From Escherichia coli (lineage in GTDB: Bacteria; Pseudomonadota; Gammaproteobacteria; Enterobacterales; Enterobacteriaceae): 64,000 nucleotides of DNA. The notes under the pieces are model-generated. The model saw only the letters and a program-made list of their open reading frames with translations, made no database searches and was not told the origin of the DNA. Positions 32,454 through 36,950 of the stretch are shown piece after piece; position 1 is the stretch's first letter, and each line of letters opens with the position of its first letter. Both the position numbers and the translations under genes were made by a program. The DNA lies in the NCBI RefSeq assembly GCF_030013595.1, contig NZ_CP122768.1; one strand, 5' to 3'.

Positions 32454-32528
<75 letters not shown>

Positions 32529-32531
32529 ATA

Positions 32532-32607
<76 letters not shown>

Positions 32608-32609
32608 AC

Positions 32610-32686
32610 TGGACCGCCACCGGGGACTCGAACCTCGCACACTCAACTTAAAGGGTTGACGCTCTTTCCCGATGAGCTAGTGGCGG
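32610..32686 (-). tRNA. tRNA with nominal anticodon UUU (Lys) but atypical anticodon loop (C at position 33)
   Basis: Acceptor ccgccac/gtggcgg, GGTTCGAGTCC T-loop, anticodon arm tcaac-CCTTTAA-gttga; one mismatch in the T-stem. Confidence 0.45.
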
Positions 32687-32687
32687 T

Positions 32688-32763
32688 TGGTGGCCCTTGC
32701 TGGATTTGAACCAGCGACCTGGCGATTATGAGTCGCTCGCTCTCACCACTGAGCTAAAGGGCC
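32688..32763 (-). tRNA. tRNA-Ile2 (anticodon CAU, ileX/ileZ-like)
   Basis: Sequence closely resembles E. coli minor tRNA-Ile (GGCCC.TTAGCTCAGTGGT.AGAGC…GACTCATAATCGC…GGTTCAA.TCC…GGGCCACCA). Confidence 0.7.
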
Positions 32764-35834: not shown

Positions 35835-35933
35835 ACAAACAATACAAACAATACAAACAATACAAACAATACAAACAATACAAACAATACAAACAATACA
35901 AACAATACAAACAATACAAACAATACAAACAAT
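35835..35933. repeat. tandem repeat, 11 perfect copies of the 9-mer acaaacaat
   Basis: Read directly from the sequence; intergenic, about 170 bp from the hok 3' end. Confidence 0.95.
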
Positions 35934-36015
35934 ACAGGCGCATCGATAATTAATTAACTTATCGGGTTACAAGGTAATATAACTTCAGTTAAAATTATTA
36001 ATCTCTTATTCGTGA

Positions 36016-36044
36016 AAAACAAAACCCGCCGAAGCGGGTTAAGT
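36016..36044 (-). terminator. intrinsic terminator of the hok transcript (aacccgcttcggcgggtttt on the minus strand)
   Basis: GC hairpin with tetraloop and T-run downstream of the hok stop. Confidence 0.6.
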
Positions 36045-36108
36045 GCGGGTGCTTTGAGGATGCCTGACACATCAGAGGTGGCGAGGGATTTCTCCCTCGC
36101 CTGGTCTC

Positions 36109-36264
36109 TTACTCCTCAGGTTCGTAAGCTGTGAAGACAGCGACCTCCGTCTGGCCGGTTCGGATTCGTACCTCGCAGAGGTCTTTCCTCGTTACCAGTG
36201 CCGTCACTATGACGGTTAAACAGATGACGATCAGGGCGATTAACATCGCCTTTTGCTGCTTCAT
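36109..36264 (-). CDS. hok: Hok/Gef-family type I toxin (51 aa), absent from the ORF track
   Basis: Hand translation: MKQQKAMLIALIVICLTVIVTALVTRKDLCEVRIRTGQTEVAVFTAYEPEE; SD aggag upstream; overlapping short mok-like frame; hallmark Hok TM domain and conserved Cys. Confidence 0.85.
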   Translation of the reverse strand: MKQQKAMLIALIVICLTVIVTALVTRKDLCEVRIRTGQTEVAVFTAYEPEE

Positions 36265-36554
36265 AGCCTGCTTCTCCTTGACCTTTCGGTCCGTAAGAGG
36301 CTAATCTCTATGTGTCGCATAGATATGGCCTCAGATTAATGTTAAGCGTCTTGCAGGACGCGTAATGTTAACTGGGGCTTTTCTCTATCTGCCTTTTGGT
36401 GTTCATGCCTGAGGCAGATAGCCTCAAGCACCCGCAGCAATTCTACTTAACTCTCCTTTTCCCGCAAACCGTTTTTATCCCCATCGGCAAATCGAATACA
36501 CCACCAACGCCACCGCCATCGCAATTCCTACTGTAGTGAATGCCTCAGGCCAGG

Positions 36555-36950
36555 TCATCGATTCACCTCCTGCTCAATATTTTTAAGGTCATTTTCCGCA
36601 TACAGTATTGCTGTCCTGGCTGCTCGTAACCGGGCTTTGGCGTTTTTCTCTTCACGTTCAAGTTTTGCCACAGCTTCACGAAGAGCATCCCGCTTTGCAT
36701 AGAGTGATTTTATCTCAGACACTATGTTTTCACCGTTTCTCGCACGCTCGAGAACAAGCTCGAACGGATCTAAAGCCAATCCGCATCGGTTACAGGTAAT
36801 CGTACGATTCACTTCTGAAATTGTTGTACGGATATGCTGACAGCATTTTTGCTCGCCGCTTTTTCTGTCGGTTATCACAACGTTGAGGAGTCCTTCCTCC
36901 TCTGATTTTGGCTGTACCAGGGTGATAACATTGTCGACTTCATTTTTCAT
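36555..36950 (-). CDS. hypothetical protein with Cys cluster and C-terminal coiled coil
   Basis: 131-aa ORF; CCQH…CNRCG motif. Confidence 0.4.
   Translation of the reverse strand: MKNEVDNVITLVQPKSEEEGLLNVVITDRKSGEQKCCQHIRTTISEVNRTITCNRCGLALDPFELVLERARNGENIVSEIKSLYAKRDALREAVAKLEREEKNAKARLRAARTAILYAENDLKNIEQEVNR

Follow-up and report, generated by a model that had tools for sequence, protein, structure and literature searches.

A probable hokD/hokW-type hok/sok cassette with a short leader reading frame in a lambdoid prophage of Escherichia coli

For the hok/sok (parB) locus of plasmid R1, the RNA elements and the two-state logic that control toxin synthesis have been described (PMC9841398). 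Transcription and instability of the Sok RNA, 3' processing of the hok mRNA, and cutting of the duplex by RNase III have been shown for R1 and, in part, for hokW-sokW (PMC9841398, PMC8621323). The latter system, from the Sakai prophage Sp5, was found by Takada et al. to be a functional type I toxin-antitoxin (TA) that is partly dependent on RNase III and Hfq (PMC8621323); its toxin, HokW, is 44% identical to the Hok protein of R1 (PMC8621323). The related Stx2 phage 933W carries the same hokW-sokW locus, and a further relative is hokD in the cryptic prophage Qin of E. coli K-12.

Here we analyze a 64,000-nucleotide stretch of E. coli DNA (contig NZ_CP122768.1; hereinafter, the window), for which a first-pass annotation had proposed a Hok/Sok-type type I locus. 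The claim holds up: a peptide of the appropriate family, a leader RNA, pairing between the 5' and 3' ends of the mRNA, a leader open reading frame (ORF), and an antisense gene are all present. The region most probably is a complete hokD/hokW-type hok/sok type I TA cassette that works as a homolog of the R1 system (probability of about 0.88, as judged from sequence). The sequence elements, the predicted pairings, and their conservation are observed directly. The family, the peptide, and even the exact allele are already known, being present and annotated (as hokD or hokW/sokW) in thousands of genomes. For the window itself, the annotation gains a gene pair, a small toxin and a predicted antisense RNA, that was missed by the 60-aa ORF track, and a hok/sok cassette of this kind can influence whether the prophage is retained, how lysis proceeds after induction, and whether the cell survives. 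The points of interest are modest: the leader ORF is short and non-canonical, and the Sok recognition tail is allelically diverse.

Among the described systems, the 933W locus is alike in having 91% DNA identity to the window over ~520 bp, with the same leader, Sok hairpin, and fold-back inhibition element (fbi). The Hok peptides of the two loci differ at 4 of the 51 residues, all near the C-terminus. Unlike the window, the 933W copy lacks the UUCG terminator sequence and carries another allele of the Sok 5' tail and of the hairpin at the mok start; furthermore, it is found close to the right end of its phage genome, whereas the copy in the window is located in the nin region.

The toxin gene

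The toxin gene is defined by two features.

36109-36264, minus strand: hok (hokD-type) coding sequence, 51 aa plus stop; assigned from the ORF list, PF01848, PHROG 251, and identity to K-12 hokD.
36279-36274, minus strand: hok Shine-Dalgarno (SD) sequence AAGGAG, 9 nt before the AUG; read from the sequence.

A 51-codon minus-strand toxin of the Hok family preceded by an SD had been reported by the first-pass annotation, and we found the exact quoted peptide, together with the AAGGAG motif, at these positions. It had also been noted that the gene falls below the 60-aa cutoff of the ORF track; indeed, at 51 aa, it is shorter than the 60-aa default of the ORF lister and would not be expected on the track. 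The peptide matches the full length of the Pfam model PF01848 (HOK_GEF; positions 1-42 of 42, E=1.3e-23) and PHROG 251, 'MokW-like host killing' (E=2.8e-33), whereas the matches to two NCBIfam Hok models are below the curated cut-offs (48.5 vs 73 and 40.2 vs 89). The Pfam and Rfam E-values rule out a chance ORF.

Alignment with the hokD family, which had been suggested as a check, provided a more specific assignment. The hok coding sequence shows 100% nucleotide identity to E. coli K-12 hokD (relF, b1562), and hence the 51-aa peptide is identical to K-12 HokD. Thus, by sequence comparison, the peptide is not just a member of the Hok family but K-12 HokD itself. The HokD subtype follows NCBI naming, with RefSeq calling near-identical loci (95-97%) hokD. 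Toxicity of the encoded peptide is probable by analogy, given its identity to HokD and the data published on close homologs: the HokD peptide is toxic upon expression (bioRxiv 10.1101/2025.08.07.668861), and HokW, 92% identical to the Hok of the window, has been reported to be toxic as well (PMC8621323).

The similarity between the window and K-12 extends beyond the coding sequence, encompassing the hok SD, the 3' UTR hairpin, fbi, and the terminator, with a nearly identical 3' UTR, as well as a rem-like gene that lies downstream in related prophages. However, the homology ends at the hok SD, and in K-12, the promoter, the upstream RNA elements tac and ucb, the Sok gene, and the leader ORF are all replaced by relBE. 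Because the K-12 homology starts only at the hok SD, the window contains the complete form of the locus, and K-12 hokD is a truncated remnant.

The codon for Tyr47 within hok (UAC, in the context UACG at 36123-36126, minus strand, as read from the sequence) presents a separate observation. UACG is the motif for A-to-I editing by TadA, and Tyr to Cys recoding has been reported in K-12 hokC, hokD, and hokE (PMC5630033). In the window, the motif is located in the loop of a weak local fold that is no better than the folds of shuffled sequence (z=0.23).

The hok mRNA and its predicted folding

The elements of the hok transcript, all on the minus strand, are as follows.

36440-36468, minus strand: putative hok promoter, with a -35 box TTTGCG (36468-36463), a 17-nt spacer, and a -10 box TAGAAT (36445-36440).
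36016-36433, minus strand: predicted full-length hok mRNA (~418 nt), from the fold and the conservation of structure.
36262-36433, minus strand: hok leader, matching Rfam RF01794 ('sok') over the full model (1-157) with 108.3 bits and E=1.1e-23.
36422-36433, minus strand: tac (GGGUGCUUGAGG), the 5' end of the mRNA; pairs with fbi in the full-length MFE structure and with ucb in the Rfam consensus and leader-only folds.
36374-36380, minus strand: ucb (anti-SD box), AAGCCCC; pairs with the leader-ORF SD region (full-length RNA) or with tac (Rfam consensus, forced truncated fold).
36329-36332, minus strand: SD of the leader ORF, GAGG, 8 nt upstream of the ATG at 36320; paired in the full-length fold.
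36297-36301, minus strand: dcb (downstream complementary box), GCCUC; pairs with the leader SD (GAGGC) once tac/ucb forms in the 3'-truncated RNA.
36047-36059, minus strand: fbi, CCUCAAAGCACCC; pairs with the 5' tac in the MFE structure and is conserved across loci (helix 1).
36016-36040, minus strand: intrinsic terminator AACCCGC-UUCG-GCGGGUU followed by a U-run, from the terminator scan.

The putative hok promoter is invariant in 933W and E. coli STEC005, and the 5' end of the mRNA is placed near G36433, the position at which the Rfam model begins as well. A consensus promoter scan called neither this promoter nor that of Sok (described below), and both are accordingly placed by position and homology only; the hok -35 box (TTTGCG) and the Sok -10 box (TAATCT) each match the consensus at 3 of 6 positions. 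The match to RF01794, well above the gathering score of 59, is to the hok-sense strand and reaches as far as the hok AUG, so the model describes the hok leader, with Sok being its complement. The name of the family, 'sok antitoxin', is therefore at odds with what the match marks, given that the Sok gene is on the opposite strand. At the other end, the tetraloop terminator that had been placed at 36016-36044 was recovered as a 7-bp stem with a UUCG tetraloop (36040-36023) and a T-run extending to ~36016, the sole terminator-like site detected in the region by the scan.

The predicted full-length mRNA folds with an MFE of -176.4 kcal/mol (z=-9.98), and the MFE structure includes the long-range pairing of tac with fbi that joins the 5' and 3' ends. 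In the same structure, the ucb segment GCCCCAG pairs with CUGAGGC, which holds the GAGG SD of the leader ORF. Shorter RNAs fold differently. For leader-only RNAs of 62-135 nt, the MFE structure is the tac/ucb stem of the Rfam consensus, and in a 45-nt nascent RNA, tac forms a 5' hairpin with the adjacent segment, the counterpart of the metastable structure of R1. When tac/ucb is forced in the 3'-truncated RNA, the energy is only 2 kcal/mol above the MFE and the leader SD is found in the SD/dcb stem; the hok SD is unpaired in this tac/ucb conformer but partly paired in the full-length fold. In the unconstrained ensemble of the 3'-truncated RNA, the leader SD stays paired and the MFE structure uses the metastable 5' hairpin, so that the switch is not reproduced by thermodynamics alone. 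Altogether, the closed form, with ucb paired to the leader SD, is the MFE structure of the full-length RNA, and the complementary boxes for both forms are all present.

Conservation of this structure was assessed by projecting the fold of the window onto an alignment of 19 allele representatives. Across the 19 alleles, 93.2% of the cells are paired compared to 37-42% with slid partners, a percentage that is inflated by taking the reference fold from one of the aligned sequences, unlike the counts of compensatory changes. The latter amount to 20 pairs vs 4.9 +/- 1.7 in shuffles; among them are six pairs of the 3' UTR hairpin and a change from A-U to G-C within the 5' hairpin. Most pairs of the tac helix are conserved in 18 of 18 sequences, and the helix between ucb and the leader SD (helix 4) is invariant in all 19; because the tac:fbi helix is mostly invariant, it provides little evidence from covariation.

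These features closely parallel those of R1 hok/sok, which likewise is closed by tac/fbi pairing and has the GAGG SD of the leader masked by ucb; the active form of R1, with tac/ucb and SD/dcb, corresponds to the open form predicted here. The GAGG motif is also that of the R1 mok SD (PMC9841398). The metastable 5' hairpin, the Sok RNA with a single-stranded 5' tail and a hairpin, and a leader ORF whose translation would be coupled to hok are shared as well. The differences are that the peptides are distant, that R1 is a plasmid replicon whereas the locus analyzed here belongs to a prophage, and that mok of R1 overlaps the whole of hok whereas the leader ORF in the window stops at the hok start.

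By homology, we take the mechanism of the cassette from plasmid R1, and this applies to the transcription of both RNAs, their processing, the translational coupling, and the toxicity. Under this scheme, the weak promoter would yield a stable hok mRNA of ~418 nt that is translationally silent at birth, with tac paired to fbi and ucb masking the SD of the leader ORF. Slow trimming from the 3' end would take away fbi, after which tac would pair with ucb and the leader SD would enter the SD/dcb hairpin. The open mRNA would then have one of two fates: binding by the short-lived Sok followed by destruction or, once Sok has decayed, translation. On the 19-codon leader, ribosomes would cross the hok SD and stop at the AUGA overlap, both opening and feeding the hok start, and the 51-aa Hok would insert into the inner membrane and kill or lyse the cell.

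The leader reading frame and the Sok antisense RNA

The leader ORF and the predicted antisense gene overlap on opposite strands.

36261-36320, minus strand: leader ORF (the mok counterpart), with the ATG at 36320, 19 codons (MRHIEISLLRTERSRRSRL), and UGA at 36263-36261.
36278-36307, plus strand: putative Sok promoter, with a -35 box TTGACC (36278-36283), an 18-nt spacer, and a -10 box TAATCT (36302-36307).
36314-36382, plus strand: predicted Sok RNA (~69 nt), with ends transferred by alignment from the sokW annotation of 933W.

The UGA of the leader ORF overlaps the hok AUG as AUGA, and the leader is out of frame with hok. The first-pass annotation had described a short, overlapping mok-like frame. 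This description fits insofar as there is a 19-codon leader ORF that overlaps the hok AUG, but this ORF is not the canonical mok of ~70 codons that is in frame with hok and overlaps all of it; translation shows that such a frame is absent from the window, where a TAG closes the in-frame extension of hok. The mokW of 933W, by contrast, extends hokW in frame and has 70 codons; compared to it, both the window and STEC005 are 2 nt shorter just after the ATG and 1 nt longer further on. Together, these differences produce the 19-codon out-of-frame ORF that ends in AUGA.

To describe this variation, we compared 112 loci, that is, the window and 111 of the 120 IMG/VR loci retrieved that share an exact 24-mer in the leader; ~103 of these are classifiable. 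The 19-codon leader is present in 17 of the ~103 (16 viral loci and the window), in each case next to an intact 51-aa hok, and nearly all the remaining classifiable loci have a 70-codon in-frame mok. Over 101 nt, the exact allele of the window is the best match (at least 99%) in 826 E. coli records. Several linked differences set the 19-codon allele apart from the in-frame alleles, among them a compensated stem with a GAAA tetraloop immediately upstream of the hok SD. By these sequence criteria, the 19-codon allele is a lineage rather than a recent lesion.

These observations bear on the possibility that the locus is a quiescent or decaying copy, in which the loss of 2 nt after the leader ATG destroyed mok, so that Hok is not translated and the cassette is a relic similar to K-12 hokD. 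The TAG in the in-frame extension of hok and the truncated, leaderless K-12 copy fit such decay, as does the finding that, in R1, premature mok stops upstream of the hok start abolish toxicity (PMC9841398). However, the new frame is open for exactly 19 codons and has its stop on the hok AUG, so that ribosomes would still cross the hok SD. This is the sole requirement that was found in R1, where, in saturation mutagenesis, mok translation was needed up to the hok SD and start and dispensable beyond (PMC9841398), and thus, the 19-codon leader meets the known requirement. The linked differences from the in-frame alleles, the recurrence of the allele in E. coli and in viral loci with hok always intact, and the conservation of all other elements of the cassette also argue against decay, and we consider a relic to be quite improbable.

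For the cassette read as functional, the AUGA stop-start overlap suggests termination-reinitiation at hok. If so, a common allele (~15% of the copies) would make Hok via termination-reinitiation rather than via an overlapping frame. In the loop that follows the leader ATG, inspection by eye for the YUNR U-turn motif identified CUGA in 933W and a 5-nt loop (CGACA) without a U in the window.

A Sok-like RNA on the plus strand had been expected at ~36290-36420; on sequence-level evidence, the predicted gene lies inside this range and is narrower (~36314-36382). Its putative promoter occupies the position at which the 933W annotation has the promoter and the 5' end of sokW. In the predicted RNA, a single-stranded 5' tail of 13 nt is followed by a long hairpin and a U-run (-29.8 kcal/mol, z=-4.4); the RNA is complementary to the SD and the start codon of the leader ORF.

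The sequence around the 5' end of this gene is hypervariable. The variable segment (36297-36332 in the window and the homologous segment of loci L003-L122) encompasses the leader start hairpin, the Sok 5' tail, and the Sok -10 box. The 26-28 nt between AATCTGAGG and AGCCTCTTA fall into approximately nine discrete alleles, around which the flanks, the Sok hairpin, and hok are nearly invariant. Such alleles could define groups of specificity, or cross-immunity, among the hok/sok copies of co-resident prophages. Taken jointly, the synthesis of Hok by termination-reinitiation in the 19-codon allele and Sok-tail alleles acting as specificity groups might be undescribed, although we regard this as doubtful.

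We also considered, and rejected, avoidance of the same Sok-tail allele by co-resident copies. In a permutation test on 16 IMG/VR genome IDs with at least 2 loci, a small sample that may include redundant contigs, 7 of the 22 within-genome pairs share an allele vs 2.3 expected (P for 'as few or fewer' = 0.999).

Prophage setting and possible roles

The cassette is part of a conserved unit that is widespread in E. coli and its phages.

36015-36560, minus strand: conserved block of ~0.55 kb that travels with hok, from a small hydrophobic ORF through the hok terminator.

Using a 611-bp query (window:35950-36560:-), we found matching DNA, annotated hokD, in 4727 of the 5426 complete E. coli genomes; the median number of matching places per genome is 2, and the maximum is 10. 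At 95-97% identity, the best matches in E. coli span positions 1-546 of the query. Among phages, 102 records match, mostly, Stx-converting and other lambdoid phages; 933W matches positions 3-524 of the query, and its homologous region contains annotated mokW, hokW, and sokW. The best match in the phage database (96.5% identity) is PP818812.1, Actinobacillus phage vB_Apl-pPE4, an unexpected host for a hokD cassette of the E. coli type.

In the window, the gene order is a DUF551-like gene, PHROG 1621, a 27-codon ORF, hok, PHROG 340 (rem-like), PHROG 1212, HNH/DUF968, RusA, Q, and four tRNA genes. In STEC005, the cassette likewise separates a DUF551 gene and a hypothetical gene from rem, DUF968, RusA, and Q. 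The cassette in the window is located in the nin region of a lambdoid prophage, between replication-side genes and Q. This prophage is a mosaic: of the 12 kb around the locus, the best E. coli match covers 73%, with an identity of 92%. The four tRNA genes, Met(CAT), Lys(TTT), Thr(TGT), and Gly(TCC) (32454-32763, minus strand), directly follow the Q antiterminator gene, at a position where Stx phages have tRNA genes ahead of the toxin and lysis genes.

With respect to the role of the cassette, the only direct data on a close prophage homolog come from hokW-sokW of Sp5. Upon mitomycin C treatment, sokW RNA goes down and HokW goes up in a RecA-dependent manner (PMC8621323), and deletion of hokW-sokW halves the release of Sp5 (PMC8621323). 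By analogy, we tentatively favor, at somewhat less than even odds, a role in which Hok is freed on prophage induction and helps lysis and phage release, with the cassette also being a selfish, addictive moron. A role as lysis helper may, however, not hold for the window, given that Sp5 and 933W carry the cassette elsewhere in the phage genome. We rank this combination of induction-coupled lysis or killing and selfish persistence first, followed by pure addiction, then abortive infection, and finally an inactive relic.

Addiction alone, through post-segregational killing, would imply that, once the prophage is lost or excised, the unstable Sok disappears and the stable hok mRNA is translated, killing the cell. 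R1 hok/sok canonically functions in this way, the RNA elements for a long-lived, delayed-action mRNA reservoir are present in the window, and hok genes are ~four-fold enriched in prophages (bioRxiv 10.1101/2025.08.07.668861). However, in earlier work, as quoted in bioRxiv 10.1101/2025.08.07.668861, the intact chromosomal hokA, hokB, and hokC gave no post-segregational killing, and the one prophage homolog studied showed a lysis and release phenotype instead (PMC8621323). Moreover, many genomes contain several copies, some of which share a Sok-tail allele and hence could cross-protect. Pure addiction is therefore possible but, in our assessment, rather unlikely.

An alternative, abortive infection or phage exclusion, posits that lytic superinfection stops host transcription, so that Sok decays and Hok kills the cell before progeny are produced. 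R1 hok/sok has been implicated in phage defence according to work cited in PMC8621323, and defence genes are frequent in prophages (bioRxiv 10.1101/2025.08.07.668861). However, PADLOC detects 0 families for Hok and for four neighboring proteins, a 2026 survey saw hok not enriched near defence systems, and nothing in the window bears on such a role, which makes defence an improbable function here. Induction-coupled lysis together with selfish persistence thus remains the reading that we tentatively prefer.

Several minor features accompany the cassette. Inside the conserved block, upstream of the hok promoter, lies the 27-codon hydrophobic ORF (MTWPEAFTTVGIAMAVALVVYSICRWG; 36475-36558, minus strand), which has a strong AGGAGG SD and an ATG that overlaps the stop of an upstream 131-aa ORF (ATGA). 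Searches of this ORF against PHROG and NCBIfam produced zero matches. Across 101 viral loci, at least three unrelated types of small hydrophobic ORFs (27, 32, and 34 aa) occupy the position just upstream of the hok promoter.

Two mosaic relatives retain parts of the cassette around replaced segments: L027:2649-3062 has the same leader, fbi, and terminator with a different hok-like coding segment in the middle, and L005:8074-8487 keeps the leader, with the sequence after the hok ATG replaced. Finally, a perfect 9-bp tandem repeat (ATTGTTTGT in the minus-strand reading; 35835-35936, 11.3 copies, 100% matches) is located directly downstream of the hok terminator and is followed by a T-rich tract. 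The listed ORFs of 45-53 aa across this repeat look like repeat artefacts. The repeat is present in only one of ~100 related loci, with 7 copies, indicating that its copy number varies.
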